A DNA stretch of 64,000 nt from Yuukianura sp. NJ FZ-2021 (GCA_046563655.1 CM102286.1:11098001-11162000); one strand, 5' to 3'. Shown: positions 16,059 to 41,896, counted from the first letter of the stretch. Translations and numbers: made by a program. The notes: generated by a model from the sequence alone, not told the origin.

Positions 16059-16720
16059 ACTGATGATGAGTCGGACAAGGCCTATGACAACAACCCAGAC
16101 AAGAGCAGTGTCACTGAAAAACCGTCTGAGATTAGTTCAACGGATTCACAAGTAAAGGAATGCTCAAATAGTAGAAAATTAAGACAAATTACAATCTGGC
16201 TTTGGCGGGAAAATGTCTCGCGTTGCCCCATCTTTCTGCAACTGAAAAAAAACTTTTAATTTTGGTGCCTAAACTTCTCAAAACTTCAAACTCCATCTAT
16301 CGGTGACTTCCTTTTCAAAGTGTCTTTCAATACGCATGACTTTTAAGTTCTTGCAAATACGCTGCAAAAACAAATTGACCACGAATGCTCAAATGTAACT
16401 GTTTTTTTAAGTTTCTTTCACCTTTTAAGCAATTTTCGCCGCTTTTTTTTAAAATTCCATCAAATGTTTCACTTTTCTTTGTTTACATAATAATTTTTGA
16501 CTTTTTTTTAGTACTTTTTCAAAATATCATACAAGTTTTTGACTTTATTAGTACTTTTTTAAAATTCTATGATTGTTTTTTTTTTCGTAGGGCAGTGAAA
16601 CAGAAATGGAGGATGATGAGGTTGACGGCGTTCCGGAGCAGAATCCGCATTCATTTGTGAGTCACTATTTCAGTTTATGAGGATTCCGAAATCAAATTTG
16701 AAATTGAAACAATAAAAATA
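16059..16720 (+). repeat. Duplicated sdk 3' exons/intron fragment
   Basis: Near-copy of 11275-11885 (GACTGATGATGAGTC..., GAAACAGAAATGGAGGA...) fused to sequence from ~12380. Confidence 0.85.
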
Positions 16721-17061
16721 CATCCTGCAAATGTTTCTTTAGTTCAATTCTTCGTCCAACTTCAGTTGATTGATTTTTTCAACTCTGTAGCATCTGCATG
16801 TCTGCCACATTTTCTCCCAAAGTGTTCTGGAACTGGTCGTTTTGGAGAGAAAAGTTTCGCATTTGTGCTGTTTGCGTTAACATTTTTGTTGAAATTCCAT
16901 TGAGCAGTTCTTTGTTCTGATTCAAAGGTACACCGAAAGAAACACACAATTTTGCCAAAATATTTTAACTACAATAATTTATGATGTCGCATTTATTTTA
17001 AAGGTAAAAAAATTCATGTCGAAAATTTCACCGTGATGCTCCTAATGTCAATTACTTTCAG

Positions 17062-19093
17062 TTACCAACAGAACCTGACTGAACTGATTTTGTTTCTTAA
17101 GTCTCCTAAATCCGGAATTGATGAATATCTGGCAAAATTTCTTGATTGGCCAGTGCAGTTTTTGTCCACGAACACTTCGACACAGAGGTTACGCGTGCGC
17201 AAAGACTCCGAGTTGTCATTCAAGAAATCCAAATTTCGACAGCATTCAGATCCAACACAGTATAAACCACCGTTGAATTCGAACTCCGCGGGGTATACTA
17301 TGAAATATTTTTTTAGTTATAAATCAAACCCACTCAAGAACCATTTTAGAAAGTTAATTAATTAATTAATTAATTTAGTTGTACAACTCCTGTAATTCAG
17401 GCCTTCGTAGAATGTCACGGTACGTCCTCGCTCACTCTGTATTACAAAAAAAAAGTCAGATTTGTAACATTTTTATCATCGCTACTTACCAAGTACCACG
17501 AACATGTATTTGCAATAAAATTTGTAAGTTACAAACCCAGTCATGCTAAACTTATTGTGTTCGTAGTAAATTTTCATAAAGCAAACTGTGTCAGTCAGAT
17601 TATTCATTTTAATTGCTTTTACTGCATTCAGTTCAGCAAGTTTACCTGTGCTTCTAGAAAATCCAATTTTTCGTGGATATGGCGAGTACGTGCTGTCAGT
17701 TCCTGCTTAGCGAGATCAGCTGAGCTAGAAATATGTTGAGTTAATTGATTAACTTGATTTGTAGTGTATTCTCTCAGTAGCACTTCCGTTGAGTTCAATT
17801 TCTCAGAAAGAACTTCCTCCGTACGAGACAAGTTTTGTTGAGAATCTGTCGAAATTTGCTCAAGTCTCCGGCCAAGCATAGTAGATTGGTTTTTAGAATT
17901 CTGTCTCATTTCAGCAATATTTTCTCTCAAACTATTCTGAAACTGGTCGTTTTGCAGAGAAAAGTTGTGCATTTGTGCTGATTGGGTAACAATTGTCCTT
18001 GAAATTGTATTCTGTAGTTCTCTGCTCTGATTCAAATCTACTCCGAATTGTGCTAAACGTGCAGTAAGTTCTGCATTTTGTTTAACAAAGGCTTGAAGAG
18101 CTGCGATCTGATTGGCTGTTTGAATAGCAAGTTCTGCATTTTGTTTAACAAGGGTTTCTTCCCGCTTAGTATTAACAGCGTTGAGCCTAAAAAGTTGTTG
18201 GGTTTGATTCGTAAGTTGCTCAATTTGGTTTGTGAGTTCTGTGTTGCGCTGTTGAAGAGCTGCGCTTTGATTGGCTGTTTGAATAGCAAGTTCTGCATTT
18301 TGTTTAACAACGTCTTCTTCCCGCTTAGTATTAATAGCGTTGAGCCTAAAAAGTTCCTGGGTTTGATTGGTAAGTTGCTCAATTTGGTTGGTGAGTTCTG
18401 AGTTGCGCTGTTCAAGAGCTGCGTTCTGATTGGCCGTTTGGTTAGCAAGGTCCTCGTTTTGTCTTTCTAGGTTTGCGTTTTGTTCTAGCAGCTCTTGATC
18501 TTTTAATACAAGTTCAGCGTACCTTTCAGAAAGCAGTTGGAGGGCATTTTTTACGACAAGTTGATCGTTGAGCCTAAAAAGTTGTTGCGTTTGATTGGCA
18601 AGTTCCGCAATTTGATTTGTGACTTCTGCGTTGCGCAGTTGAAGAGCTGTGTTCTGAATGGCCGTTTGGATAGCTAACAATTCTGCATCTTGTCTGTGGC
18701 GTTCAGCAAGCAATTGCATGGCGTTCTGTTGTTCGACCAGTTGCTGCTCAATGTAGTTCATCTGGAAATGTACAAAGTGACTCAAACTCTTCAGCAGTTT
18801 GATCTAAAAATATTACTTTGAACTTAAGCATTTGAGGCGAATATTGGAAATTCCTACCCCTGTCACAACTTGCTCCAAGTATTGTCGCATGTTCAAGTTC
18901 CGTTTGTCACGCCGCCCAAACTCTGGCTGGTAGGAGGCAAATTTTAAAAAAAAACATTAACAAAGAAGCAAAAAATTATTTTGGTGAAAACAATTTTATT
19001 GCTGAAATTTTCAAAAAAATTCAACTTTACCTTTCCAACAGCACTACGGAGAGGGAGAATGCAAAGGCAAAGAAATATTTGCATAGAATCCAT
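17062..19093 (-). CDS. Secreted coiled-coil protein with C-terminal beta/gamma-crystallin-like domain (copy C1, ~511 aa); exons 19093-19031, 18926-18858, 18761-17646, 17436-17385, 17297-17062
   Basis: Signal-like MDSMQIFLCLCILPLRSAVGK; exon 2 PEFGRRDKR; Q/N/E/L heptad repeats; tail VTFYEGLNY...NDNSESLRT..CVEVFVDKNCTG...IPDLGDLRNKISSVRFCW*. All introns are GT-AG and phase-compatible. Confidence 0.75.
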
Positions 19094-19582
19094 TGGCACT
19101 AGTACCCAAAAATTCAGTTTGGAAAAATTCAGGTTTAAAGCAATTATGAAATATGAAAATATGATATTAAGAAACGAAATCAAATTTGTTAATTTGAGTA
19201 GGTATTTAGTCAACTCTGGTGTAAAACGTGGCTTATGCTGTTCATATAGAAGCAGCAGAAACTTCTCATAGAGCAAAATATCTGAAGAATTTTAATCAAT
19301 TAAAAATGCGGATAGACAATTTTAGTTTACTTTTGATAAAAGTTCTAAAATTTACTTGAATTAAAAAAAAATCAGGCTCCAGTCTCCAGCCTATGTTTTT
19401 GATTAAGAGATTGCAAATATTTACTTTTGGAATTCTTGGGATTTCTTGGTTTGAATGACCTTCGCGACTTTTTACGCTTAAGATAAGTTGATTTCAAGTG
19501 TTTATATAAAAACTGGCATCAAATTTTTTGCAAAAGTTTTCCATCTCCATTTAACCTAACATAAAGAAAAGACTCCAAGGAG

Positions 19583-20110
19583 AGAGCAGCCTCACTGAAA
19601 AGCCGTCTCAGATGAGTTAAACGGATTCACAAATAAAGGAATTGTCGAAATCTAGAAAATTAAGGCACAAATTACACTCTGTCTTTAGTGGGAAAAAGTC
19701 TCGCGTTGCCCCATTTTTCTGCAACTAAAAAACAACTTTGAATCTTTGTCGCCTGAAAACTTCTCGTTGCTTTAAGCTCCATCTATCGGTGACTTGCTTT
19801 TCAAAGTAAACGGAAATTTGTCTTTCTCTTCGCATGATTTTTAAGTTTTTGCAAATACGCAACAAAAACAAATTGACCACGCATGGTAAAATCCAACTGT
19901 TTGTTTTAAGTTTGTCTCAGCGTTTTGAGCATTTTTTCCTGCTTTTTCTTTTAAAATTCCATCACATGTTTCACTTTTCTTTGGTATGATACCAATTTTT
20001 GAGTTTGTTGAAGTACGTTTTCAAAATTCATATTTTTTGAATTTTTTGAAATTAAATTAAAACAATAAAAATACATCCTGGAAATTTTTTTTCGTCCAAC
20101 TTTTGTAGAT
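19583..20110 (+). repeat. Second duplicated sdk 3' exon/intron fragment
   Basis: GAGAGCAGCCTCACTGAAAAGCCGTCT and the following intron match 11317-11780. Confidence 0.8.
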
Positions 20111-20549
20111 TATTGATTTTTTGAACTAGTATGTTACATTTCTGCCACATTTTTCTCAAAGTGTCTTTGGAGAGAAAAGTTGTACATTTGTGGTTTTTGG
20201 GTTAAAATTGTAGTTGAAATTCCATTTTGTATTTCTTAGCTCTTGTTCAACGCTATACTCCGACTTATGATAACTGCTTAGTAAGTTCTTAATTTTGTTT
20301 TAAGGTTTTCGGAACCTCCAGACCGTCACAGTAACCTAAACGCCTATAATTTAGTAAATTTTCCGAAAAATTTTACCTACAATAATTTATGATGTCGGAT
20401 TGATTTTAAAGGTAAAAAAGTCGTGTCGAAGATTTCAACGTGCTGCTCCTAATGTTGATGACTTTTAGTAATAGCAGGGCTTGACTGAACTGATTTTGTA
20501 GGCGAAGTCTCCTAAATATCTGGAATTGATAAATGATTTTCATAAGATC

Positions 20550-22468
20550 TTATATTAGTGTTGAAGGACATGGTCTAAAAACATAGCCCATGCAGTCATC
20601 CTTGACCCAGCCCATCTTTTCTAATGCCTTGATGTTGTAGCCCAAAGCCATTCGATAAATATATCCTCGGTGGAGACCATAGAGTCCGAAAGTTCCTTCT
20701 TTAGGTTCTAAAAAGATGAAAGTTCGGACGTAGTCTGAATTTTCGTTAGGCCACCATCCAGAAGTTAAATTTTTTGTTGAAAACCTATTCCTCTTGCCAT
20801 TGTGTACCTCACTAGGGCAACTGTCCCATTAACTGCTGATTTTGCAACTCGCGCCAGTTCTCCCAAATGCTGGTATCCATAATATACTAATGAAAAAAGA
20901 GTTTGAATTTTAGTAATTCAGTTTTTCGTGACCGAGCTTTTGTGCACGTTCACACGTGACCGTCCATGAGGATAACGGTCGACAAGTTACCGTGTGTTAG
21001 TAACGGGTTACGCCACCAGATATAAACGGCGTAAAGGTAAAAACAAAACAAAGCTCCGCGAACGCCCATGAAAACTTTTTTCGAATTGTTACTCCATGGA
21101 GTTTTCGGGAAAAAACAGTTGAAAAAAAATAGTATTTCGTATTCCAATGATTTCATCTAGTCGTAAATAACATGAAACTTACAATTTTCCGGCCAGACTG
21201 AAGTGTAGTGAAAAGCAGGCTCACCTGTATTCACCAAGGTTCCTTGACAACGGAAAATTGTTGTTTTGTTTTGTTTGCGGTTAAGAGATTGGGTACTACC
21301 TCACTTGTTGACAAAAAATTGAAAGAAAAAAAAACAAAAAATTAGTACCAATTTAGTACCAATCCGAATGCAATATTGGTACCAATTATTGTTTTTTCAT
21401 TTTTTTGTCAACAAGCGAGGTAGTACACAACCTCTTAACGGAAAACAAACAAAACAACAATTTTTCGTTGTCAGGGAACCTTGTGTATTCACATACTCGC
21501 GGAGTGGAACAAACCGCGAATCAGAGCAGACGTCAAAAGTAAAGTTCAAATTGATTTTCGCTGCGGTGTATTCTTTTAGTAGCACTTCAGTTAAGTTCAA
21601 TTTCTTAGAAAGAATCTCTACCACCCTTGTCGTGTTTTGCTGAGATTCGGCCAAAATTTTTTCAATTTTCCGGTCAAGAATCGCAGACTGATTTTTTGAA
21701 CTCTGTCGCATTTCAGCAACATTTTCTCTCAAAGTATCCTGAAATTGCTCATTTTGGATAGAAAAGTTGTGCATTAGTGCTGTTTGGCTAACAATTGCCC
21801 TTGAAATAGAATACTGCAGTTCTTTGGTCTCATTTACAGCTACTCCGAATTGTGCTAATTGTTCAGTAAGTTGTGCATTTTGTTTAACAGCAGCTTCTTC
21901 CCGCTTAACATTAACAGCGTTAAGCCTAAAAAGTTCTTGGGTGTGATTGGTAAGTTGCTCAATTCGGTTTGTGAGTTCTGCGTTGCGCTGTTGCAGAGAT
22001 GCGCTCTGATTGGCTGCGCGAACTGCAAGGTCTGCGTCTTCATTTGCGAGTTTTCCATCTTGTTCGAGCAGCTCGTGGTAGCGTTCAGTCAGCAGTTGCA
22101 GGGCGCTCTTTAGTTCGAGTAGTTGCTGCTCAAAGTCACTCATCTGGAAATGTACACAGTGACTCAAAATCATTCGCAGTGTCAAAAAAAATGTTTTGCA
22201 AGAAGCATTTTTTCGGCAAAAACTGAAATTTTCTTACCCCTGTCACAACTCTCTCCAAGTATTCTCGGATCTCCACGTTCCGTTTAGCACGTCGTCCAAA
22301 ATCTGGCTGCCACGAAGCAAATTTAAAAAAAAATCAACAAATGAGCAAATAACAGTCTCAACGAAGCAGTTTTACTGTTGACATTTTTGGAAAATTCAAT
22401 TTTACCTTTGCAACAGCACTACGGAGCAAGAGAATGCAAAGGCAAAGAATAATTTGCGTAGAATCCAT
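20550..22468 (-). pseudogene. Coiled-coil paralog C2 with DUF5648-like head, disrupted
   Basis: Same signal and coiled-coil exons as C1. Head exon is homologous to 33668-34017. MITE inserted at 21235-21483 and a 1-bp deletion at ~20803. Confidence 0.7.
21235..21483. mobile_element. MITE with long TIRs and 9-bp TSD
   Basis: CAAGGTTCC(T/C)TGACAACG...CGTTGTCAGGGAACCTTG flanked by TGTATTCAC direct repeats. The empty site is seen in the paralog at ~34354. A partial relative starts at 8108. Confidence 0.88.
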
Positions 22469-24006
22469 TGTCGCGACGTAATTTAAATTTATATAAACTA
22501 TGAAATTTGAAAATATATTATGAAACGAAATTAAATTTGTTAATATGAGTTAGGTATTTAGTCAACTCTGGTGTAAAACTTGGCTTATGTTGGTCATATA
22601 TAAGCAGCAGAAACATCTCACAGAGCAAAATGAAGAATTTTAGTCAAATAAAATGCGGATAGACAATTTTAGTTTACTTTTGATAAAAGTTCGGAAATTG
22701 ACTTGAATTTAAAAAAAAATTAGGCTCCCGTCTCACATTATTTCTTTGATTAAGAGCTTGAAAATATTTACTTTTGCAGTTCTTGGAATTTGTTGGTTTG
22801 GATGATGACCTTCGTGACTTTTACGCTTAACATAAGTTGATTTCAAGTGCTAAAATAAATACTATTGGCATCAAATTTATACTTCAGTTTTTCTATCTCC
22901 ATTTAACCTAACATAAATAAAAGACTCTGATGCTGTTAATGTGAAATGGTCAAAAACAATTTGGTCAAAAAGTGAATACGCCAACCAGTGAGAAGGTCAA
23001 ACATAAGAATACGTGGCCTAACCAAACATAACCTACTATTTGCAACAGTTGACTTCTCACTTTTTGAACTTGTCAGTTCTTGATCGAAATATTTTGACCT
23101 TTTCACCAGCTACGGTTTCGGATTCGTTAAAATTTCACAAATCTCCCGTACTCTGAATTTGAAATTTTCATTTTTTTTACTTTATATAAAATTTAAATTA
23201 TTCAATTCAGCCATCAAAAATTTCGAATTTGTAAATTTATTTGTAGTAGTTCACTCTGCCTGTTTAAAGAATATGTAAACCTCAATTTATTGGGCCTCTG
23301 CAATGTTAACAGTAATAAATTGGTTTTGCGCCTACCTAGAAACCTAGCCTAAACTGAATTGCTGTAATTAGAGTATACAAATGAGTGTATTTGACCTATT
23401 ACTTGTGAACCGAAAAGGGGACTTGGCAGGTCAAAGGTCAATGACCTTCATGTCAAGGGCACACATAACTCACATTAGGCAAAAGAAGCTACTAGGAAAA
23501 AATGAAATTACTTTAGAGATTTCTAGTGGAGAAAACTTGGTTTTAAGTAGACCGAAACAGACTAACGGTGAGGCGTGAGGACTCAAAGAACAGAGTCGGG
23601 GGAACGAATCAAGGTGGAGCTGACTTTAAATAAAATAAATTACTTTATAAATTAACACACCACAACTTAGAATACACAACTTAATACTTTAGAAACTTAT
23701 TTAAACTATAAAAATTAAATTGTAAAAATTCACCGACGAGAGTTTTCTAAACAATCAATTGTTAGAATTATTAATTTTGAAAATTTTAAATTCAGTGTTA
23801 CACTTTGAGGCACAAGTTTGACCGATTTATTCAAAATAGCAAGGTCTTCCTAACTCCTTTTTTGAGGTCACCAGGCCGCGTGAAGTCACTACCAAAGCAT
23901 TTAGTCCTTGTGGATTCCGAAATGAAACAATTTGAAATTGAAACATAATAAAATGCATTTTGGAACTATTTTCCTAAAGTTTACTATAACTTGATAGTGA
24001 TTGTAA

Positions 24007-27000
24007 CTACAGTAACATAAGTAACTTGGCAGCGTACTTAACGAAGAAGCTATGCCAAGCAATTTCAGCTACAAATACAATGAGACAGACCAGTATAAAT
24101 ACAGAGTGTACAATAAAAACTCCAAGCAGTAGCCCACTGCCCCACGACAGTCGCTCAAGTAAATTTCCCGGTAAATTTTGAATTGCCACAAATTTATCAA
24201 CTTGTTTCTTGAGTTTGAATTTCACCGTTTCCGGACCTTCCAAAATGTAGCACAACAGACCAGATTGTATCAAGGACTGGAACTGCCTCTGAATATGCCC
24301 GGAGCGGTCAAAGGTCATTGGAACCATCATCCAATACGTGTTGTAGGAAAAGTACTTTTCTTTGCCGTAGTACAACTTCTTAGACGCTTCAGGATCCAGT
24401 TCTACTAAATCCAAAAAAGTTTTTGCTAAGCCCATTCCATCGTCTATGTAAATTTTGTTGTCGCACTTCACAATTTCTCGCAGAAGCTCGTGTGGTTCGG
24501 TTCTATTTTTGACAAAAATTGGTGTAATGCTTTCAATCAATTTTGGAAATATTTCAGTTACAACAGTCATATTAGTATATGGACGAGACGCACGAGCGTA
24601 ACGGAAGACTCCTTTGATAAAAGCATTTACTTGCAATATCTGCTTAACGCACCACCAATTGTACGCCACTCGCTCAGTATAGTTCAACTGCTCAAATTCC
24701 CGCCAATAACGTGTCTCTGCATCTTCTGGTTGACATGGAATTGCAACTTTAAATTTTGCCACCAAAGCATCATTGACTGATTCCAGCTTAGTGCTTGGTA
24801 GAGGCGCGGTTACGTCGGCTGTTACCTCAGAGCGATAAAGATTTGACAAAATTAGCAAAACTAAGGGTCGTATGCTTAATGCCAAAGTCAAAGTAAGGTT
24901 TGACCACGGTTCACCTAACCAGGGCTTTACCTTAACCGCCAGGTCACAGTAAGTTTCATATTTTTAATGAAAAAGTGAACCGAGGCTAGCTAACCGGGCG
25001 GTCAAAGTAAAGTTCACCGAGAGTTACGATTTCACTTGTCACATTTTTCTCAACCTTTTCACATAGCAGAAGTGGACACGAAATATGACAAGTAGAATTA
25101 TAACCCTCGGTTAACTTTTACTTTACCCTGACCGGAAGGTAAGCTAACCGCGAGTCACTTGTTCTTTACTGACAACAAAACAAATCACATGTTCACATCA
25201 GTTCAAGGTCTTAGCTTTTTGTTAGTTTTACCGTAATTAATCGAGCCAATTAACATAGTTAGTGATGGGTAGGTAATTACCACTTCATTATATTGTTATT
25301 TTGGTTATCTTTTAATTTGCTCAACGATACTTGTCTGATTAGTTGACGACGCTGGAGTCGTCTGGAAAGCCGCCTCAAGCGATAAAATGAACTTTCATTA
25401 GCCATTAGTTAAGTTTTATAAATAAAATAGCTAAGATTTCCAAAAAAGTAATCGCTAACCCTACCCCCTGACCAGGGTTGGATTTTTAACCTCGGGTTAG
25501 AGCTCAGTCACCTTACCAGGTGTCACATTTTCGATTAAACATACGAAATCCTAACTTTTACTCGAGGGTAAAAGTTGAGTTGACCACGGGTTGAACCATT
25601 GGTCAAAGTAACTTGAAAACTGCATTAAACATATGAAAACCTTACTTTGACCTGTGAGTCAAGGCAAGGTTACGGTAACTTTGGCATTAAGCATACGACC
25701 CTAAAGCGAGCGCGGTCAAGAAAAATTTGAGACAATAAATTTTGTTCAATTTGCCAGAAAAGTGAATGTTTTGTTCAAATAGCAATCGGATAACAAGAAA
25801 GATGTAGTTAGCTGTAGAACGCTTGTAGCGAACTACTAAAAACACAAAATAAACAGCAACTATAAGTAAGGTCAAGAGACCAATCCAAAGGTCAAGTTTA
25901 AAAGGTCGTGTGAAGGATAAGAGAGTAATGAATTTTTCTACGCCGGCGCAAGTAACAAATTGAAGCTCATGACTGTTTTTGTGGTACATGGAAGTGTATT
26001 GGTGCGCACTTGGATTTCGTGTTATATTAAGTCTGTTAGTAACGCCTGGGTATGCCTCAGGATAAACATACAATACCTTTCTACTCGCGTCTTGGCGTGC
26101 AAGTTTTGTTATATTCAGACCTTTTGATTTTGATGCTCTTGATGCTGATTGGTTGAGATGCCGAGTTACGCTTTTTAAAATGTTTATGTAAGGAATATCA
26201 GTTGTATTAGGAGTGTGTAATTCTGCATTTCCTCCGGTTGAAATCAAGTAACGGTGATTCAAATATTCATAGGCTGTCCATGTCATAGGACATGCATGTA
26301 CTAGAGTTCTTGTCAGTTCGGTATCGAGTTGCGAGCGAAAAGGGATTTGCACAACATTTGTACCTATTGGAATAAGTGTATTTTCATAATTTATAAAGGA
26401 TTTCAAAAATTCCAAAATATTTAATTTTGAAAAAAATTTACCTTTTTGCCGCATGCGTAGAGCATAGGTATTGCACGGGTACGGTGAAATTGTTGTCACT
26501 TCGGTAATATTGGTCGCACTAAAGTAAAAAAATAGTGGCAACAAAGGCTGCATGAGGGATGGTTCATCACATTTGGCAAGATACCGCTGTTCTATTCCCG
26601 CCATTTTGTGTAACCACACGAGATAAATGTTGCGGCCGTAACATGGTTGCACTTTTTTTGGTTCGTAGCCACATTGCACTAACCAGTTGAATCGAGACGC
26701 TAGACACACCTGAGTAGTAAACGATTCGTGTACAAAATTTAAAATTAGTGCGCAGGCGTGAATTTTTTACGAATCTGCCAATTTCCAAAGATTGAAAGGT
26801 AGAGTTAATGTAAGTTTCATTTTCCGATAGGACGATTAGTTGAATAGGTTGATTTGAAAAGTAGTTCAATTCAAAGTTTCCTGTAGCCTGTGCGACGACA
26901 AATACATGGCAGTAGTCGTATCCAAGATCTTCAAATTTAGCTGCCTGTTGCAAGTTGGTGGAAATTGTGGAGACAATATTTGCAAAATTTATAAAAATTT

Positions 27001-27043
27001 TGAAAAGTTGGTACACTGACTTCATCTTGTTTGTTTTTAACAC
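24007..27043 (-). pseudogene. Divergent ionotropic receptor-like gene, copy 2
   Basis: Paralog of 12625-14747. Has a +1 frameshift at ~26761, a 78-bp intron at 26364-26441 and a MITE in M3; removing the MITE restores TALALVLLILSNLYRSEVTAD. Confidence 0.75.
24865..25701. mobile_element. PIF/Harbinger-type non-autonomous element
   Basis: TIR GGGTCGTATGCTTAATGCCAAAG / CTTTGGCATTAAGCATACGACCC, with TAA TSD at 24862-24864 and 25702-25704. Confidence 0.92.
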
Positions 27044-27549
27044 ATAATTGGTTCCTCCCCACGACTCGCACTGAAAACGAAAATACGTGTGTAATAAGAA
27101 AAAAAAACTGCCCTTTGGTTTGAATTTTATTTTTGAATTCCTAGTTTAAATGGAGCATTATTGAACAGTTTTTGAAATTTTGAGTTTCAAAGTTTGTGCC
27201 CTTCAACTTTTTCCTGTTAATCAAGATTATTATTAGCGTATTGAGATCAAATGATAGCTTCGGAGTGGTGTCGAGATGGTAATCTTCCAGAACATGACAA
27301 TTTTCGTGTCAATATTATTTTGGCGAATGAGTCACTACAAAGCGCATTTAATGATTTTCATCGAAACGAAGCTGGATTTTGTTGTAGGATCTTAGGAAAC
27401 ATCAGACCGTGACAGTAACCTAAACACTTATAATTTGTTTCAAATTTTTCGACAAATTATAACTTAATTTATGATGTCACATTTATTCTAAAGGTAAAAA
27501 ATTCGTGTCGAAAATTCCAACGTGCTGCTCCTAATGTTAAATACTTTCA

Positions 27550-29695
27550 CTAATAGCAGGGCTTGACCGATGTGATTTTGTACGAGAAGTCTCCTAAATT
27601 TGGAATAGAAGAATATTTTTGATAAGTCCGTGATTCGCCGGTGCAGTTTTTGTCCAGGTACACCTTGACACAGACGTTAAGCGTGCGCAGAGACTGCGAG
27701 TCGTTATTCAAGTGATCCAAATTTTTGCAGCATCCAACAGATCCGGAACAGGATGAAGTGCCAAGATGGAACTCCTCGATTACTACGAAATATTTTTTTT
27801 AGTTTTAAAATTAACTCGCTCAGAAATCAATTTAAAAATGTAAATTAATTAATTACTACTGTATCCATTTGTACCAAAAGAGTAATTATAGCCATAGTAG
27901 AATGTCACGGTAGGTCCTTTCTCACTCTGTATTCCACAAAAAGAAATCAGATTCTTAGCATTTATGTTATGACTACTCACCCAGGAAGTACGCAAATGTT
28001 ACAGAAATGTAAAAGTTGAAGTAAAAATTTGTAAGTTACAAACACAGCCATTCTCAACTTTGTGTTCGTATTAGTGTAACTTTTCACAAAGCATGTTAGT
28101 TAACTTAAGATTATTCATTTTTAACACTTTTACTGCATTATGTTTGTGATGTTTACCTGTGCTTGTAGAAAATCCACTGAAGCGTTTAACCTTGTGTTGA
28201 TATCGTGAATATGTGTTGTTAGTTCCTGCTTAGCAACATCAGATGAGCGAGAAATTTGTTGAGTTAATTGACTGACTTGATTTGCAGTGTATTCTCTAAT
28301 TCGCACTTCGGTTAAGTTCAATTTCTTAGACAGAGCTTCTTCTCTACGTGTCAAGTTTTGTTGAGAATCTACAGAAATTTGCTCAATTTTGCGGTCAAAA
28401 GCAGCAGTTTGATTTCTTGAACTTTGTTGCATTTCAGCAACATTTTCTCTCAAACTATTCTGAAATTGCTCGTTTTGGATAGAAAAGTTGCGCATTTGTG
28501 TAACAATTGTCGTTGAAATTGTATTTTGTAGTTCTTTGGTCTGATTCAAATCTACTCCGACTTGTGCTAATTTTTGAGTAAGTTCTGCATTTTGTTTAAC
28601 AAGGGCATCTGCCCGCTTAGCGACAACTTCACGATGTTTGCGGAGCTCAGCAACTTCCGTAACAAGTTGAGCGTTTACTCTAAAAAGTTCTTGGGTCTGA
28701 TTCGTAAGCTGCTCAATTTGGTTTGTGAGTTCTGCGATGCGCTGTTGAAGAGCTGCGTTCTGATTGGCTGTTTGAATAGCAAGCTCTGCATTTTGTTTAA
28801 CAACGGTTTCTTCCCGCTTACTATTAACTGTGTTGAGTCTAAAAAGTTCTTGGGTCTGATTCGTAAGCTGCTCAATTTGGTTTGTGAGTTCTGCGATGCG
28901 CTGTTGAAGAGCTGCGTTCTGATTGGCTGTTTGAATAGCAAGCTCTGCATTTTGTTTAACAACGGTTTCTTCCCGCTTACTATTAACAGTGTTGAGTCTA
29001 AAAAGTTCTTGGGTTTGATTCGTAAGCTGCTCAATTTGATTTGTGAGTTCTGCATCGCGCTGTTGAAGAGCTGGATTTTGAATGGCCGTTAGAATAGCAA
29101 GGTCTTCGTTTTGTCTTGCAAGTTTTCCATTTTGGTCGAGCAGCTCTTGATTTTTTACGACAAGTTGATCGTTGAGCCTAAAAAGTTGTTGCGTTTGATT
29201 GGCAAGTTCCGCAATTTGATTTGTGACTTCTGCGTTGCGCAGTTGAAGAGCTGTGTTCTGAATGGCCGTTTGGATAGCTAACAATTCTGCATCTTGTCTG
29301 TGCCGTTCAGCAAGCAGTTGCATGGCGTTCTGTTGTTCGACCAGTTGCTGCTCAAAGTAATTCATCTGGAAATGTACAAAATGACTCAAACTCACCAGAA
29401 GTTTGATCTAAAAATATTATTTTGAAGAAGCATTTTGAGGGAAATATTGGAAATTCCTACCCCTGCCACAACTTGCTCCAGATATGGTCGAGTATTCACG
29501 TTCCGTTTATCACGTCGCCCAAACTCTGGCTGGTAGGAGGAAAATTTAAAAAAAAGTTAGCAAAGAAGCAAAAAATTCTTTTGGTGAAAACAATTTTATT
29601 GCTGAGGTTTTTAAAAAATTCAATTTTACCGTTGCAAGAACAGCACTACGGAGACAGAGAATGCAAAGGCAAAGAATAAGTTGCGTAGAATCCAT
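27550..29695 (-). CDS. Secreted coiled-coil protein with beta/gamma-crystallin-like head (copy C3), 5 exons, apparently intact
   Basis: Signal-like MDSTQLILCLCILCLRSAVLAT; PEFGRRDKR; 42-aa repeats; SEKGPTVTFYYGYNY; CCKNLDHLNNDSQSLRTLNVCVKVYLDKNCTGES...IPNLGDFSYKITSVKPCY*. Confidence 0.75.
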
Positions 29696-31193
29696 TTGCA
29701 CGACCCAAAAATTCAGTTTGAAAAAATTCAGTTTTAAAGAAATTATGAAATTTGAAAATATGATTATATTGAAACGAAATCAAAGTTAATTTGATTAGGT
29801 ATTTAGTCCACTCTAGTGTAAAACGTAGCTTATAGGTTGGTCATAAATACGCAGCAGAAACTACTCACAGAGCAAAATGTCTGAAGAATTTTAATCAATT
29901 AAAAAATGCGGATACACAATTTTAGGTTACTTTTGATAAAAGTTCGAAAATTGACTTGAATTTAAAAAAAATCAGGCTCCAGTGTCACTCTATGTTTTTG
30001 ATTAAGAGATTGCAAATATCTACTTTTGCAGTTCTTGGAATTTGTTGGTTTGGATGACCTTTGTGACTTTTACGCTTAAGATAAGTTGATTTCAAGTGCT
30101 AAAATAAATACTATTGGCATCAAATTTTTACTTCAGTTTTTCTATCTCCATTTAACCTAACATAAATAAAAGACTCCAATGCTGTTACATGTAAAATGGT
30201 CGAAAACAATTTGGTCAAAAAGTGAATACGCCAACCGCAGTGAGAAGGTCAAACATAAGAAAACGTGGCCTAACCAAACATAACTTACCATTTGTAACAG
30301 TTGACTTCTCACTTTTTGAACTTGTCAGTTTTTGATCGAATTATTTTGACCTTTTCACCAGCTACGGTTTCGGATTCCGTTAAAATTCCAAAATTTCAGA
30401 GATCTCCCTACCCGAAATATCAAATTTCATTTTTTGTTAATTTATACAAAACTTAAATTATTCAAATTCAGCCATAAAAAATTTCGAATTTGTAAATTTA
30501 TTTGTAGTAGTGCACTCTGCCTGTTTAAAGAAGATGTAAACCTCAATTTATTGGGCCTCTACAATGTTAACAGTAATAAATTGGTTTTGAGTCTACCTAC
30601 AAACCTATCCTAAACTGAACTGCTGTAATTAGAGTTTACAAATGAGTGTATTTGACCTATTACTTGTGAACCGAAAAGGGGACTGGGCGGGTCAAAGGTC
30701 AATCACCTTGACCTCAAGGCCACACAGAACTCACATTAGGCAAAAGAAGCTACTAGGAAAAAATAAACTAACTTTAAAGATTTCTAGTGGAGATAGAGAA
30801 AACTTAAGTAGACCAGTATTGAAACAGGCTAGAGGTGAGGCGGGAGGACTCAAAGAACAGGGTCGGGGGAACGAATCAAGGTGGAGCTGACTTTAAATAA
30901 AATAAATTACTGTATACATTAATACACCACAACTTAGAATACACAACGTAATACTTTAGAAACTTATTTAAACTAAATACACAAAATGTATACTTTTAGA
31001 ACTAGTCGGAAAAGATTTCTTATAATTGAAGAAAAATTTTCCAACTAAAGTTTCAATACGAAAAAAAAAATTTAACCTGGGCAGGATTCGAATACCGGCC
31101 AGGCCCTGAAGGTTCAAGTTATAATTTTTTGTTCGAATTTTAAAGTGAGCACAAATGTTAAAATAATATTTTTTTTTTATCACTTTAGTAGTA

Positions 31194-31407
31194 TAGCCGG
31201 AAACCCGTGATGTTTACACATCACGACATTAACTTAAAGCACTAGGTAATCGTAGCGTCAAACGAAAAGAGCTAGTCGATTTTTGACATGGAGCAAGAGG
31301 ATTTTTAACATTTTGTCAAAAATCTCCTACCTCTTTCGTTTGACCCTACGATGACCTAGTGCTTTAAGTTAATGTCGTTATGTGTAAACATCACGGGTTT
31401 CCGGCTA
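31194..31407. mobile_element. MITE (TAGCCGGAAACCCGTGATGTTTACACAT TIR)
   Basis: Near-perfect long inverted repeat; same family as 48008-48164. Confidence 0.8.
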
Positions 31408-31536
31408 ATTGAATAGAAAATTGCGAAGGCTGGGGGAAGGGGGCAAGCCCCCAGACCCCCCCCCCCCGGTTTTCAGTTGAGATGGAATTTGTGGAAGTCT
31501 AAGCCTAACCTAACCTAACCTTGGAGAAGTAATAGT

Positions 31537-32907
31537 GAGGTTGCGCTGCATTACCTATCACCTAAACCGAACGAAATACAGAGCGATTTTTACAAATAAA
31601 TGCAACAATAAAATAAATTAAATAAAATTTACTAAAATCACACATTAATTATAAATTAGGTATAATTTAAAAAAAAACAAAATGGCGGGTGATATAAAAC
31701 AGTTTTTATCGATTTTTTTCACTTCTTTCGTTAAACGTAGTAATAAATACACAAAAACCCCATTGATTAATAATCAATCTCAACTTGATTAAAACAAAAT
31801 GGCGGGTGATATAAAACAGTTTTTATCGGTTTTTTTCACTTCTTTCGTTAAACGTAGTAATAAATACACAAAAACCCCATTGATTAATAATCAATCTCAA
31901 CTTGATTAAAACAAAATGGCGGGTGATATAAAACAGTTTTTATCGATTTTTTTCACTTCTTTCGTTAAACGTAGTAATAAATACACGAAAACCCCATTGA
32001 TTAATAATCAATCTCAACTTGATTAAAACAAAATGGCGGGTGATATAAAACAGTTTTTATCGATTTTTTTCACTTCTTTCGTTAAACGTAGTAATAAATA
32101 CACAAAAACCGCATTAATTAATGAATTAATTAATTAATTAATTAAACCCTTGAGCATCGCCCTACCTTGTTTCCAATAAACCTAGTATAATTAATACATG
32201 AAACCACAAAATAGTTGACAATCGATCTCAAATTCTTCAGCATAAAATAGCGGGTGGTATTAAACAGTATATTTATAATTTTTTTTCACTATGCTCATTA
32301 AACCTGGTAATGAATACATAAGATAAGTATTTATTACTACGTTTAACGAAAGAAGTGAAAAAAATCGATAAAAACTGTTTTATATCACCCGCCATTTTGT
32401 TTTAATCAAGTTGAGATTGATTATTAATCAATGGGGTTTTTGTGTATTTATTACTACGTCTAACGAAAGAAGTGAAAAAAATCGATAAAAACTGTTTTAT
32501 ATCACCCGCCACTTTGTTGTAATCAAGTTGAGATTGATTATTAATCAATGGGGTTTTTGTGTATTTATTACTACGTTTAACGAAAGAAGTGAAAAAAATC
32601 GATAAAAACTGTTTTATATCACCCGCCACTTTGTTTTAATCAAGTTGAGATTGATTATTAATCAATGGGGTTTTTGTGTATTTATTACTACGTTTAACGA
32701 AAGAAGTGAAAAAAATCGATAAAAACTGATTTATATCACCCGCCATTTTGTTTTTTTTTTGAAATTATACCTAATTTATAATTAATGTGTGATTTTAGTA
32801 ACATTTTATTTAATTTATTTTATTGTTGCATTTATTTGTTAAAATCGCTCTGTATTTCGTTAGGTTTAGGTGATAGGTTTAGGTAATAGGTCATGCAGCG
32901 CAACCTC
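31537..32907. mobile_element. Foldback-like element: long inverted arms made of 117-bp tandem repeats
   Basis: Ends GAGGTTGCGCTGCA...TGCAGCGCAACCTC. Units AATGGCGGGTGATATAAAAC start at 31681, 31798, 31915 and 32032, with inverted copies in 32327-32750. No TSD seen. Confidence 0.8.
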
Positions 32908-33012
32908 CCCAATGTTAAAAGGTGCACCTCAGGGTCGTTCCACTCTTCCAAGAGTTTTTTCTACCTATAGTTTGCATGGCCAATGGCCATGTTAACATTG
33001 GGACGACCAACA

Positions 33013-33189
33013 CGAAACGAAGCGCGAATCCGAGCACACGTCGAAACTGAAATCCGGACATATCTTCGCCTGAGCGCTTTTGTCTTTATAATAAGCGCGG
33101 GTAGCTACTTTCTGCTCCGGTAATGCCATAGTAACATTCTCTTCGGCATAACCGTTAACAATTGACAGGACTAATACAAACGTTGACAT
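33013..33189 (-). pseudogene. Truncated 5' fragment of a short secreted protein sharing the start of the DUF5648-like head
   Basis: MSTFVLVLSIVNG...QAKICPDFSFDVCSDSRFV matches AKINLNFTFDVCSDSRFV of C2/C4 but has no coiled coil. Confidence 0.5.
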
Positions 33190-33667
33190 TTTACGAACGA
33201 TGTAGACGGAAATGTTAAAATATTGACCATGTTTGACGTATTTGGAGCCTTTTATATTCAAATTCTTTTTTGAAGCATTTCTGCTGCATTTTTTAACGAA
33301 AAGTCATGCCTGTGAAGGAACTTTGGGTATTTCATGTCCGGCCTCGATGTCGATCTAAGTTTCGCCACAACAAATTAGATACAACAAATTTAATAAAAAA
33401 GTGGGTGGTGGTATAATTTAAAATGGGTTAAACGACGGCACAAATTTATTGGTCGAATTACAGTTTCGATCAAAACATTTTAAATCACAACTTAACCTTA
33501 TTATTCTACGGTATAAAATTGATGTCACGTGTAAATCATATTTTTACAATTATTTTCTAATTTGAAATGATTTTAATTTGAAGCATTATGAAAACTGTTC
33601 AATTAGCTTAAAAAATATTTTAACCAGATTAAGGATTTTTGTTTCGAAATGTAAATTATCATAAGCC

Positions 33668-35535
33668 TTAAATCAGTGTTGAAGGACATGCTCTAAAAAC
33701 ATAGCCCAGGAGGTCATCCTTGACCCAGCCCATGTTCTCCAGTGCCTTGATGTTGTAGTCCAAAGCCAGTCGATAGAATGGAAATAGCACAGTTTCTCTG
33801 TGCAAACTGTAGAGCCCGAACGCTCCTTCCTTAGGTTCTAAAAAGATGTATGTTTGGACGTAGTGTTGATTTCTGCTAGGTGCCCATTCACCAGTTAAAT
33901 TTTTTGTTGAATACTGAGTCCATTTGCCTTTGTAGTACCACACTAGTGCAACTGTGCCATTAACTGCTGATTTTGCAACTCGCGCCAGTTCTCCCAAATA
34001 CTGGTATCCATAATGTGCTAATGAAAAAAGAGTTTGAATTTTAGTAATTTAGTTTTTGGTGACTGCGCTTGTATGAACGTGCACATGTGATCGTCCATGA
34101 GGGTAACGGTCCACAAGTTACCGTGTATTAGTGACGGGTTACGCCAACAGATATAAGCGGCGTAAAGGTAAAAACAAAGCAAAGCTCCGCGAACGCCCAT
34201 GAAAACTTTTTTGAATTGTTAGTCCATGTAGTTTTGGGAAAAAGCAGTTGAAAAAAATAGTATTTCATATTCCAATGATTTCATCTAGTCGTAAGTAACA
34301 TGAAACTTACCATTTTCCGGCCAGATTGAAGTGTAGTGAAATTCAGGCATACCTGTATGCACATACTCGCGGAGCGGAACAAACTGGGAATTAGAACAGA
34401 CGTCAAAAGTAAAGTTCAAATTGATTTTCGCCGTTGCGTTGTATTCTTTTAGTAGCACTTCAGTTAAGTTCAATTTCTGAGAAAGAATCTCTACCGCCCT
34501 TGTCGTGTTTTGCTGAGATTCGGCCAAAATGTTTTCAATTTTCTGCTCAAGAATCGCAGACTGATTTTTTGAACTCTGTCGCATTTCAGCAACATTTTCT
34601 CTCAAACTATTCTGAAATTGCTCGTTTTGGATAGAAAAGTTGCGCGTTTGTGTAACAATTGTCGTTGAAATTGTATTCTGCAGTTCTTTGGTCTCATTCA
34701 TTTCTACTCCGACTTGTGCTAATTTTTGAGTAAGTTCTGTAATTTGTTTAACAAGGGCATCTTCCCGCTTAGCGACAACTTCACCATGTTTGCGTAGCTC
34801 TGCAACTTCCGTAACAAGTTGAGCGTTTACTCTAAAAAGTTCTTGGGTCTGATTCATAAGCTGCTCAATTTGATCTGTGAGTTCTGCATCGCGCTGTTGA
34901 AGAGCTTCGGTCTTCGTTTCAAGGTCTTCGTTTTGTCTTGCAAGTTTTTCGTTTTGTTCTAACAGCTCTTGCGTTTGATTGGTAAGTTCTTGAGTTTGGT
35001 TTGTGAGTTCTGCGTTACGCTGTTGAAGATCTGCGTTCTGATTGGCCGTTTGGATAGCAAAAGGTCTTCGTTTTGTCTTCCAAGTTTTCCGTTTTGTTCT
35101 AGCAGCTCTTGATCTTTTACTACAAGGTCAGCGTAGCGTTCAGCAAGCAGTTGCTGGGTGTTCTGTTGTTGGAGCAATTGTTGCTCAAAGCCATCCATCT
35201 GGAAATGGACAAAATGAATCAAAATCATTTGCAGTTTGTCTAAAAAAAAATTTATTTTTGAAGATTTATTTTTATTTATTTTTTTCTGCAAAAACTGAAA
35301 TTTTATTACCCCTTTCACAACTCTCTCCAAGTATTCTCGGATGTCCAAGTTCCGCTTATCACGTCGCCCAAAATCTGTCTGCCAAGAAGCAAATTAAAGA
35401 AAAATCAAGGAGTAAAAAATCGTCTGAACGAAGCAGTTTTATTGTTGAGATTTTCGGAAGATTCAATTTTACCTTTGCAACAGCACTACAGAGGAAGAGA
35501 ATGCAAAGGCAAAGAATAATTTGCGTTGAATTCAT
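33668..35535 (-). pseudogene. Coiled-coil paralog C4 with DUF5648-like head; single frameshift at ~35060
   Basis: Signal exon, RDKR exon and coiled coil, then FVPLREY...FHYTS..|AHYGYQYLGELARV...GTVALVWYY...GLYSLH...GWVKDDLLGYVF. Two extra bases in a homopolymer run (could be a sequencing error). Confidence 0.65.
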
Positions 35536-38296
35536 TGTTGCGACCCAAAAATTCAGTTTGGAAAAATTCAGTTTTAAAGAAATTATGACACTTGACAATA
35601 TGATATTATGAAATGAAATGAAATTGTTAATTTGAGTAGGTATTTAGTCAACTCTGGTGCAAATCGTGGCTTAGGTTGCGCTTATAGTCAGCAGAAACTA
35701 CTCACAGAGCAAAATGTCTGAAAAATTTTAATCAAATTAAAAATGCGGATAGACAATTTTAGTTTACTTTTGATAAAAGTTCGGAAATTGACTTGAATTT
35801 TAAAAAAAAATTAGGCTCCAGTCTCTCTTTATGTTTTCGATTAAGAGCTTGCAAATATTTACTTTTGCAGTTCTTGGAAGTTGTTGGTTTGGATTATTTA
35901 TCTTCGTGACCTTACGGAAACAGGTAAGTTGATTTCAAGTGTTTAAATAAATATTCGCATGAAATTTTATAGCACTTTAGTTTTTCCCTCTCCGTTTAAC
36001 CTACCATAATAAAGACTCAAATGCGGTTCCTTCTAATATGGTCAAAATCAATTTGATCAACAAGGGAGAAGGATCAAACATAAGAAAACGTAACCTACAA
36101 TTTGTAATAATGGTTTACATTTTCTCTTTTTGATCAAATTATTTTGACCATTTCACCTGCTACGGTTTCGGATTTGTTAAAATGTCAAAATTTCAAAAAT
36201 CTCCCGTACTCTGAATTTGAAATTTCATTTTTTACTTTATATAAAATTTAAATTATTCAATTCAGCCATCAAAAATTTCGAATTTGTAAATTTATTTGTA
36301 GTGGTTCACTCTGCCTGTTTAAAGAATATGTAAACCTCAATTTATTGGGCCTCTACAATGTTAACAGTAATAAATTGGTTTTGAGTCTACCTAGAAACCT
36401 ATCCTAAACTGAACTGCTGTAATTAGAGTATACAAATGAGTGTATTTGACCTATTACTTGTGAACCGAAAAGGGGACTTGGCAGGTCAAAGGTCAATGAC
36501 CTTCATCTCAAGGGCACACAGAACTCCAAACACATTAGGCAAAAGAAGCTACAAGGAAAAAATGAAATTACTTTAGAGATTTGTAGTGGAGATGGCGAAA
36601 ACTAGGTTTTAAGTAGACCAGTATTGAAACAGACTAACGGTGAGGCTTCAGGACTCAAAGAACAGGGTCGGGGGAACGAATCAAGGTGGAGCTGACTTTA
36701 AATAAAATAAATTACTTTATAAATTAACACACCACAACTTAGAATACACAACTTAATACTTTAGAAACTTATTTAAACTGAACTAGAAAGTTGCTGGAGA
36801 GGGAATAGCTTAACTAAAGCCAGCATTTCGAGAAAAAAAAAACAAATTCAAGAAGAGAGACAAATTCAGGTTCAACAGTGGATTTTGCATTAAATGTTAA
36901 GTTAGACCTACACGAATTACAAAGTAATTACAATTACACGGTAATTACAATTACATAAAGTAATTACAATTACACAGTAATTAGTAAATTAGTTAATACA
37001 AATGACACATACACGCTTGCACAAAAATGCACAGGGTAAGAGCACCGAGACTTTTTACCTCTCCTCAACGAACAACGATCGACGATTAGGTTAATGTTAG
37101 GCTAAGTTAGCCTAACCATAACCTAACGTAAGTTTTTTGAGCAGGCAGAGCCAATTCTACTAAACAATTTTAACTTTTTAACAATGTTAGGCTAGGTTAG
37201 GCTAAGCTAACCTCAACCCTTATTCTTTTTACCTAACAAATGCCTTACAAAACCCTCAAGCATCAGTCTCCAGAGAATTAATTTTAGCCAAAAAGTCTCA
37301 TCTTGTTTAGTAAGTTGATTAATTACTCTAGTTAGTTAATTAGTAATTAGTAAATTCTTTTTTAGATTGATGATTCCAGTAGTTTCTAATGTGTAAATTG
37401 TAAGATGTTTTACATTGATGGAGAGGAGGAGAGGAGTGAAGAAGTATAAGTTTTTTATCTACCCTCATCCAACATCGCGTGTGTTTTTGCTTTTCCGTTT
37501 GTGATGAATTCTGCAACTGATGAATTTGTTGGCTGTTTTTGTAGTTGGGTTGTTTAGTCAGTGGCGACATTTCCACTTCCGTTGACAATTGGCCCCTCCT
37601 CTCGCCGCTTGTTGTTTCGTGTATTGGGTATAAGTGTAGAGTAGTGGGCAAGCACCGATTTTCTTGAAATTTTTTTTGTGAACACCCTATGGACCCCTGA
37701 TAACGAAAATATAATTTTTTTTGAGGGGTCTCAAAAAAAATATTTTTTCGAAATTTTGGAAAAAAAATTTCGAAATTTTTTTTGTCTCCGATTTGGCTCA
37801 AAATTGGTTTTTAGACTAATTTAAGTGTTCTAAACACGAATATGAAAGAATTTTTGTTCTAAAATGTAACACAAAAAAGTTACGAATTTTTAAAGCTATT
37901 CCTTCTACGAGGTTAGATAGGTTAGGTGGCTGAGGTAGGTTGGGTTCAAACAGGCAGCCTTATTTACTCTTTCATTCTAGTTAGATCAAGTTGTATTTTC
38001 CCGCGCCGAAGGCGCGGTGTTAGGTTTGGTTAGATTCACAACAGTGATTATTACTTTCAGTACCAAGTTTTATGGCATCACTGATGCCCATACGCAAACT
38101 TTGGGTATAAGTTGCCCTTACGTTTCTCATAGTACGATTTCTTAAGAAATTGCGTAACTTATTTGTCTTACATCCTAGAACAAAAATTCTTTCATATTCG
38201 TGTTTAGCACACCTAAATTAGTCTAAAAACCGATTTTGAGCCAAATCAGAAACAAAAAAAAATTTCGACATTTTTTTTTTCAAAATTTCGAAAAAA

Positions 38297-41200: not shown

Positions 41201-41896
41201 TTAGGATTTCTTGTGCTCTTCGCCTAGGAACTGATATATGCCAACCTCATATCTGCTCGTGCGGTGCTCCGGTGTCAAGTAACGGTCTCCACGGTTTAAG
41301 CTGTAAGCGTAGCGCCGGAAGACACTCGCGTCACAACTCAGTCAACGACATAATCTTCAGAGCATTACAAACCGCTGGATTTCCTTCAATTAAAGAACCT
41401 GTCGGCTGCAGCAGATCCGATGGCAAACGACCAGATGGTGTTACTCTCATTCCTTGGAGCTCAGGACGCTGCCTCTGCTGGGACTTTACCTGCCGTGACA
41501 CTTATGCAAATTCCTACCTTTCGACATCGTCTTCCCGCTATGGTCATGCAGCCGAATTAGCAGAGACACACAAACATCATCTCTATCGTGACCTAGAATC
41601 TCGCTTCGTGGTATCCATCATTGCCGTCGAGACATCAGGTGTATTCGGATCCGAAGGTCTTCGTCTACTAAAACAAATCGGACATCGGCTGTCAGAAACA
41701 TCTGGAGATAAACGAGCCACGACCTTCTTCCTACAACGAATAAGCCTAGCTGTTCAACGCGGAAACTCCTGCTCAATCTTGGGAACCTTACCCTCAGGAA
41801 AAGATCTTTACGAATTATTCATATTATAATCTAATTTAAATCCTACTTCTTTTCTCAACCTGCCTTTGGCAGGTGACTGTGAAATAAAAATTCTAA
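38297..41896 (+). mobile_element. CRE-clade non-LTR retrotransposon (RT + restriction-like endonuclease)
   Basis: RT motifs GGIRPIAIG, QVGVG, DFRNAFN, GVQQGDPLG, WYLDD, LGGLG. RLE motifs CSC..H..C, RHN, RPDG, WDFT, K..Y. Flanked by TTCGAAAAAA direct repeats. Confidence 0.9.
38635..41829 (+). pseudogene. CRE polyprotein (RFX-like wHTH, RT, Zn knuckle, RLE) with two frameshifts (~39845, ~40975)
   Basis: ORFs 38596-39933, 39926-41077 and 40909-41829 are consecutive pieces of one protein. Confidence 0.85.

Follow-up and report, generated by a model that had tools for sequence, protein, structure and literature searches.

The 64,000-nt stretch of DNA from Yuukianura sp. NJ FZ-2021 analysed here (GCA_046563655.1 CM102286.1:11098001-11162000; the window, with positions counted from its first nucleotide) carries four paralogous genes, designated C1 to C4, which encode a predicted signal peptide, a long coiled-coil stalk and one of two different C-terminal heads. 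The DNA of the window is eukaryotic, with a GC content of 39% and GT-AG introns of 87 to approximately 290 bp, and all four paralogs are located on the minus strand between positions 17062 and 35535. Gene models for C1 and C3 were obtained by reading of the sequence and scripted model building; each comprises five exons that join into one open frame at GT-AG borders. The exons of C1 (17062-19093, 511 amino acids) lie at 19093-19031 (signal peptide), 18926-18858 (dibasic site), 18761-17646 (stalk), and 17436-17385 and 17297-17062 (head), and those of C3 (27550-29695, 542 amino acids) at 29695-29630, 29529-29461, 29365-28157, 27926-27875 and 27782-27550. C2 (20550-22468), delimited by alignment to C4 and from the list of open reading frames, has its ATG in exon 1 at 22468, the start of its stalk exon at 22143 and a last exon at 20886-20550, ending in the stop at 20550. 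C4 (33668-35535) begins with the ATG of exon 1 at 35535 and ends with a stop at 33668; its exon 3 (35198-34311) encodes the stalk and the first repeat, or blade, of the head, followed by an intron (34310-34018) and a last exon (34017-33668) that encodes the remainder of the head.

In C1 and C3, a hydrophobic N-terminus of approximately 21 residues is encoded by exon 1, and exon 2 adds a short segment that contains a furin-type dibasic site. The stalk is the product of exon 3, and the head, of approximately 94 residues, is split between exons 4 and 5. Exons 1 and 2 and the stalk were recovered from each of the four genes by tblastn and blastn comparisons within the window; the crystallin-type head was confined to C1 and C3, and the three-repeat head to C2 and C4. 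The latter two genes part from the common sequence within exon 3, approximately 40 codons ahead of the point at which this exon ends in C1 and C3, and continue with one intron of approximately 290 bp and a different head of approximately 140 residues. The first-pass annotation, which was made from the sequence alone, had described a shared signal-peptide exon, a shared dibasic-site exon and a long common stalk, and all three were recovered in each of the four paralogs; its proposal of a secreted stalk-plus-head design is likewise supported by the anatomy of the genes, from which secretion itself would follow.

The stalk exon encodes 372 residues in C1 and 403 in C3. These stalks contain no cysteine, at most one proline (0-1) and two glycines each, with glutamine, asparagine, leucine, alanine and glutamate accounting for approximately 58-61% of the residues and ten N-x-S/T sequons in each. 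The hydrophobic 3.5-residue periodicity of the stalk exceeded that of all 500 shuffled sequences. Tandem repeats of 159 bp (53 residues) are present within the stalk, in 2.2 copies in C1 (18093-18449, minus strand) and 2.7 copies in C3 (28679-29114, minus strand), and it is this difference in copy number that accounts for the unequal stalk lengths, as had been anticipated when stalk-length change was suggested for the family. The C-terminal segment of the stalk is the best conserved part of the protein across the four genes (65-83% identity). When the last 148 residues of the C3 stalk were modelled as three copies, a parallel in-register bundle was predicted with a complex score of 0.66, as compared with 0.01 for the best of three controls; the partner chains had a predicted local distance difference test (pLDDT) value of at least 85, at least 94% of the contacts agreed between runs, and contacts between identical residues extended over the entire length. 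Of the proteins solved as pairs of one chain, 21 of 30 attained the mark used for this score, as compared with none of the 23 solved as single chains, in a calibration that was based on two copies and in which passes by eukaryote proteins may reflect memory. The model thus supports self-association of the stalk as a parallel, in-register coiled-coil oligomer, the number of copies not being fixed by it, and the heptad-type periodicity together with the predicted in-register self-association would place the stalk in the parallel coiled-coil class. A word-index search for relatives of the stalk (residues 255-425 of C3) returned 422 candidates, none of which was confirmed at E ≤ 0.001.

Both head types had been assigned in the first-pass annotation, as a cysteine-containing beta/gamma-crystallin-like domain in C1 and C3 and as a three-repeat DUF5648-like domain in C2 and C4, and profile-profile comparison of the spliced heads argues for both assignments. 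The spliced C1/C3 heads aligned by hhalign with a combined I36/Crystall alignment over 75 columns, which take in each half of the domain (score 28.2, P 7.2e-5, probability 63%). None of 100 column shuffles reached this score (maximum 17.0), the reversed query scored 14.6, and a cross-control against the DUF5648 profile scored 10.0. The target alignment was assembled from 24 of 27 I36 matches and one Crystall match found in 301 bacterial genomes, with the partial matches L041, L042 and L054 and one duplicate left out; PF00030 occurred in only two of these 301 genomes, all from one bacterial phylum, and the I36 matches were used instead. In an Atlas feature search with the crystallin-type head, clusters carrying Crystall and Inhibitor_I36 ranked first (0.94 and 0.93), at a recognition value of 2117, which is below the usual 2300 and weak if taken alone. 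All six cysteines of the last exon are conserved in C1 and C3 alike. Word-index searches yielded no candidate relative of near length for the C3 last exon, and 490 candidates of longer lengths for the C1/C3 last-exon alignment, none of them confirmed. At the profile-profile level, below Pfam thresholds, the C1/C3 head is accordingly assigned to the beta/gamma-crystallin / inhibitor-I36 superfamily as a putative six-cysteine domain of approximately 90 residues.

The last exon of C4 (P0001, 115 residues) was compared by phmmer with 1.84 billion representative sequences, giving 26 matches at E ≤ 0.001. One of them, P0021, is a DUF5648 protein (Pfam E 1.6e-122) that also carries a Peptidase_C70 domain; it was matched at E 1.9e-4, a value weaker than it appears because it sums over repeats. 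Nine of the 26 matches were scanned against Pfam, of which six contained unrelated domains or repeats only (MucBP, secretion-tail proteins, galectin arrays and others) and one more gave a sub-threshold match. P0012, a protein of 104 residues without a Pfam family, aligned over nearly the whole C4 last exon with 36% identity, and blade 3 of C4 aligned in register with each of the P0021 blades by BLASTP (21-32% identity). The spliced head, represented by C4, C2 and P0012, was then aligned by hhalign with eight DUF5648 domains (score 35.8, P 2.7e-5, probability 74%). Alternative alignments were full-length and in register (132 columns, P 4.2e-5) or shifted by one blade (P 2.8e-4), which is the pattern expected of a three-repeat relative of DUF5648. 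No shuffle out of 100 reached 35.8 (maximum 27.1), and the reversed query and the cross-control against the I36 profile scored 14.0 and 9.0, respectively. The eight three-blade domains were supplied by P0021 itself and by 6 of the 25 loci retrieved together with it; the remaining loci were left out because they matched the protease part only or were near-duplicates. A hidden Markov model of the blade built from 23 closely related bacterial blades gave 2-5 bits on the head and was too narrow. Scans of metagenomes returned 116 pattern matches for P0012 and 79 for the C4 last exon, none of which was confirmed. As an observation on the method, MucBP arrays, type IX secretion substrates and galectin arrays outranked the true family member by summed short matches when phmmer was run with the repeat head exon, and E-values obtained by phmmer with repeat-containing queries should be checked for this effect. 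The C2/C4 head appears from these profile comparisons, below the thresholds of Pfam, to be a three-blade domain of approximately 140 residues related to bacterial DUF5648. In the literature, DUF5648 is called a three-bladed propeller that occurs in O-antigen-targeting toxin domains, with glycan binding proposed (10.1101/2025.01.06.631476), described as a (beta3-alpha)3 domain with aromatic residues on its surface and in grooves (PMC11299179), and listed among candidate cell-wall-binding domains (10.64898/2026.04.26.720912).

The arrangement of the four genes reflects a duplication of a block of approximately 12 kb. Block A (12615-23708), containing a neighbour gene, C1, C2 and a shared upstream region, is collinear in blastn matches with block B (24015-36779), which contains the neighbour gene, C3, C4 and the same upstream region; the order in both is neighbour gene, crystallin-type gene, DUF-type gene. 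Directly 3' of the C2 stop, a remnant at 20357-20546 (minus strand) matches the final 60-80 nt of the crystallin-type coding sequence and its 3' flank with 81-82% identity to C1/C3 (blastn), and within it tblastn identified the last 15 residues of the C3 head at 20471-20515. The remnant indicates that, in a crystallin-type gene, a DUF-type cassette took the place of exon 4, of the terminal part of the stalk exon and of the greater part of the last exon. The breakpoints of the replacement fall within exon 3 and within the last exon, away from the intron borders. Since each of the collinear blocks holds both gene types, the replacement would be older than the duplication, and one event covers both DUF-type genes. 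Head swapping, as it had been envisaged at first, is therefore upheld in so far as one true replacement is recorded by the crystallin remnant at C2, but free interchange is not, given that this single event and the block duplication explain all four genes. The description of the heads as interchangeable or polymorphic is not supported as worded, in view of the collinear duplication, the breakpoints inside exons and the frame disruption of both DUF-type copies.

The cassette has a GC content of 42-43%, against 40-41% in the stalk, and thus no compositional anomaly. A recent horizontal transfer of the cassette was considered and rejected on the grounds of its intron and its stalk-like GC content; an older transfer may have occurred. 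Further remnants on the minus strand point to earlier rounds of duplication and decay: stalk remnants lie downstream of C1 (16694-16958, blastn; 56% over 72 residues by tblastn) and of C2 (20049-20300, blastn and tblastn), a weak one lies downstream of the block A neighbour gene (12488-12607; tblastn 49% over 45 residues, E 2e-6), and a short, weak remnant of the linker between the DUF-type stalk and head lies downstream of C4 (33016-33069; tblastn 67% over 18 residues, E 0.002). The neighbour gene itself (12615-15027 and 24015-27369, minus strand) was duplicated along with the family and retains 68-83% nucleotide identity between its copies. It has long open exons of up to 420 amino acids with hydrophobic stretches; in searches against Pfam, its exons in block B had no match at E up to 1 and those in block A none at E up to 0.001. 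Between C3 and C4, a foldback at 31553-32878 consists of two inverted arrays of 117-bp tandem repeats (31674-32130 and 32327-32754) with 97% matches.

Both DUF5648-type copies are frame-disrupted in this assembly. In C4, a run of four T at 35059-35062 (minus strand), where C1, C2 and C3 have two, causes a +2 frameshift early in the stalk, and the reading frame upstream of it terminates at 34959 in the list of open reading frames. In C2, alignment to C4 revealed the deletion of one nucleotide between 20804 and 20803 in the last exon (20802-20805, minus strand), which shifts the frame within blade 2 of the head. C2 also carries an insertion in exon 3 (21226-21492) resembling a miniature inverted-repeat transposable element (MITE): the 249-bp element at 21235-21483 has 45-nt terminal inverted repeats (89% complementary), is flanked by an exact 9-bp target duplication (21226-21234 and 21484-21492) and is absent from C4 in the alignment of the two genes. 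An ordinary intron at this position was rejected on account of the inverted repeats and the target duplication; in-frame removal of the element by way of a weak splice donor is possible. Each DUF-type copy is otherwise open, with one frameshift each and, in C2, the one insertion, and the damage would therefore be recent.

Between C1 and C3, nine of 11 coding insertions or deletions are multiples of three, as opposed to seven of 27 in non-coding DNA, and the remaining two coding ones are adjacent and sum to six. The nucleotide divergence of the two genes is 11-27% per exon; in a neutral simulation, the C3 frame stayed open in 2 of 2000 runs at 9% substitution and in 0 of 2000 at 18%. This is evidence, at the level of the sequence, that C1 and C3 have been kept as coding genes. 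In the heads, the ratio of non-synonymous to synonymous substitution rates (dN/dS) was 0.71 between C1 and C3 and 0.56 between C2 and C4; in the stalk segment, all pairs other than C2/C4 gave 0.41-0.54, and C2/C4 reached 1.05. The C2/C4 last exon had 50 mismatches in 334 positions as compared with 22 in 293 in the intron (Fisher 0.004), and the C1/C3 head exons had 68 in 275 as compared with 70 in 395 in adjacent non-coding DNA (Fisher 0.03). Heads that diverge faster than the adjacent non-coding DNA would fit diversifying selection on a binding surface. The head intron (34310-34018 in C4, 21182-20887 in C2) is itself conserved, with 7.5% mismatches against 15% in the exon that follows; a search of the whole window against Rfam gave no match, and the conserved intron is therefore not a known RNA.

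On balance, the four genes probably constitute a lineage-specific tandem family of secreted, oligomeric stalk-plus-head binding proteins. The product would start with a signal peptide, followed by a propeptide of approximately 10 residues ending in the furin-type dibasic site, at which it would be processed. Next would come the helical stalk of 370-400 residues, nearly devoid of proline, lacking cysteine and offering about ten sequons for predicted N-glycosylation, and then the small C-terminal head. Assembly of the stalk in parallel and in register, probably as a trimer, would bring two or three heads side by side at one end. With regard to the history of the locus, the ancestor would have been a crystallin-type gene in which a DUF5648-type cassette displaced the final part of the stalk exon, exon 4 with the introns on its two sides, and the greater part of the last exon; duplication of the block of three genes (neighbour, crystallin-type and DUF-type) would have followed, and a frame-breaking lesion would later have arisen in each DUF-type copy. 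Such proteins would most likely act outside the cell as multivalent binders of glycans or other surface ligands, in a lectin-like role in recognition or agglutination.

Several observations weigh against this account. The hhalign probabilities are moderate (63% and 74%) and were obtained with query profiles of two or three sequences. In Pfam, which was run on single exons and thus misses the first hairpin of the crystallin domain, Crystall_3 matched the C3 last exon at E 0.013 with 16.1 bits, against a cut-off of 27.3, and the C1 last exon gave no match; DUF5648 had no match at E up to 10 in the C4 last exon, the C4 blade-1 piece, P0012 or the C2 pieces, the genes again being represented by exon pieces only. 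AlphaFold2 returned pLDDT values too low for use both for the crystallin-type last exon (49.2, two-row alignment) and for the DUF-type last exon (39.0, with 2.3 blades and a four-row alignment), and the C3 last exon, searched by sequence against solved structures, gave no more than two chance matches (E 1.8). Most of the 26 phmmer matches are repeat-protein noise that outranks the true DUF5648 protein, whose own E-value is subject to the summation already mentioned. Only three copies of the stalk were given to the complex model, and the trimeric state was assumed. Two of the four genes are frame-disrupted, which speaks against a strong need for the DUF-type head. Finally, the dN/dS values of 0.5-0.7, and of 1.05 for the C2/C4 stalk segment, also fit relaxed constraint, and patchy gene conversion, rather than selection, could have raised the divergence of the heads above the level of the intron.

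The family was compared with known stalk-plus-head systems. It resembles collectins, ficolins, tetranectin and the coiled-coil C-type lectins and FREPs of invertebrates in its predicted secretion and recognition, oligomerising stalk, small C-terminal heads and organization in tandem gene families; coiled-coil forms of lectins are described for shrimp and scallop (PMC5645147, PMC11741071). In contrast to collectins and ficolins, there is no collagen-like Gly-x-y region, the C1 and C3 stalks having two glycines each in 372-403 residues, and neither a C-type lectin nor a fibrinogen head was matched in Pfam. The stalk, at approximately 370-400 residues, is also far longer than in those humoral lectins. 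Proteins of the olfactomedin family consist of a signal peptide, a coiled coil and a C-terminal beta-propeller, and the DUF-type copies show the same order of parts, with a parallel coiled coil and a propeller-type head as predicted. Unlike the five-bladed olfactomedin domain, the head here would be a small three-blade beta-alpha unit related to DUF5648, and no similarity of sequence to olfactomedins was detected with Pfam. Judged by its domain content, the family is neither collectin, ficolin nor olfactomedin, since the defining domains of these proteins are absent.

As for the heads, bacterial DUF5648 (PF18885) occurs in BSAP pore-forming toxins, GH70 enzymes and an enterococcal endolysin. 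The C2/C4 head shares with it three tandem blades of approximately 45-50 residues, in-register profile similarity and a C-terminal position as the presumed targeting part, but the Pfam model does not score the exon pieces, the bacterial blade motif is degenerate in blades 2 and 3, and the domain is split by an intron and joined, in a eukaryotic host, to a coiled coil instead of an enzyme or toxin. The C1/C3 head resembles members of the beta/gamma-crystallin superfamily (PF03995, PF00030, PF08964) in its length of approximately 90 residues, its whole-domain profile match and its Atlas neighbours in those families; it differs from them in staying below Pfam thresholds, in its six cysteines and in occurring once, as the terminal part of an extended coiled-coil protein. 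In the literature reached by searches for these domains, no eukaryotic coiled-coil protein with a DUF5648 or crystallin-type head is described.

A bolder form of the same interpretation, which we consider rather unlikely, is that a eukaryote joined a glycan-binding DUF5648 propeller of bacterial type to a trimeric coiled-coil scaffold of its own, where the crystallin head had been, giving rise to two classes of humoral lectin-like receptors with heads under diversifying selection, and that the broken DUF-type copies are segregating null alleles of an immune-type locus. If this were true, the genes would represent an undescribed family of innate recognition molecules and a rare case in which a replaced exon is still visible next to the new one.

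The proteins might, alternatively, serve as structural secretory material (mucus, egg coat, adhesive or extracellular matrix), with the stalk as the working part and heads that are there only for cross-linking, calcium binding or capping of the fibre. About three quarters of the protein is stalk, which is rich in glutamine and asparagine, contains about ten sequons and 53-residue repeats of variable number, and includes the best conserved segment in all four genes; microbial beta/gamma-crystallin domains, moreover, are often calcium-binding. We regard this explanation as unlikely, because the heads retain six invariant cysteines and in-frame insertions and deletions and yet outpace the neighbouring non-coding DNA, which better suits a binding surface than a cap; a matrix role would not account for replacement by a domain for which glycan binding has been proposed, and the stalk, besides lacking cysteine, showed neither low-complexity nor cross-linking motifs.

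It is decidedly unlikely that the genes encode secreted effectors, such as protease inhibitors or toxin-like proteins. The head would then act like I36 metalloprotease inhibitors or killer toxins of the same fold, the short dibasic propeptide would be the sign of a secretory product that is stored and processed, and the stalk would have no role beyond multimerisation. In its favour, the profile match is one to I36 domains in particular, the alignment being made up of 24 I36 sequences and one Crystall sequence, the second-ranked Atlas cluster is named peptidase inhibitor I36, and disulfide-rich heads, fast evolution and tandem expansion with pseudogenes would all suit effectors; DUF5648, moreover, is presented as the targeting domain of bacterial pore-forming toxins (10.1101/2025.01.06.631476). 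Against this, I36 and the crystallins form one superfamily, between which the profile match does not separate, and neither a catalytic nor a pore-forming module was found, Pfam showing no other domain in any exon. That the cluster is functionless and decaying, with recent duplicates drifting towards pseudogenes and C1 and C3 intact only for now, is highly doubtful: two of the four copies are disrupted, at least five remnants lie in the locus, dN/dS is high (0.5-1.05) and word-index searches found no relatives of the stalk or the crystallin-type head, but the frames of C1 and C3 (511 and 542 codons) have remained open at 11-27% nucleotide divergence per exon, when that of C3 did so in hardly any simulated run at 9% substitution and in none at 18%, coding insertions and deletions are predominantly in frame, unlike those outside, and the few lesions of the disrupted copies speak for recent disablement.

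Other features were recorded elsewhere in the window, all on the plus strand. An uninterrupted open frame of 1253 amino acids at 2094-5855, unusual in this intron-rich region, may belong to a mobile element and gave no Pfam match at E up to 0.001. At 7436-10978, exons that include fibronectin type III domains precede a hydrophobic segment, and the product is probably a large cell-surface receptor. Three overlapping long frames at 38593-41829 form a retrotransposon-like element: the nearest Atlas neighbours of the middle frame are RVT_1 clusters (0.97), and the first frame matches an RFX DNA-binding domain (E 2e-10), an odd partner for a reverse transcriptase. The clusters returned by an Atlas search with the reverse transcriptase were of plant and algal origin and not informative as to the phylum of the host. 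Two closely similar long open reading frames at 60728-61580 and 62301-63484 are tandem duplicate genes, the first copy of which has GST_N_2 and GST_C_2 domains.

Returning to the reading of C1 to C4 as a family of secreted, oligomeric binding proteins, its value is limited by the fact that half of the copies are broken and by head assignments that rest on moderate profile scores. If C1 and C3 are expressed, two head types would be added to those of the stalk-plus-head secreted recognition proteins. The locus records the replacement of a domain within exons, with a remnant of the old exon retained, and would be useful for understanding how modular secreted proteins change their binding end.

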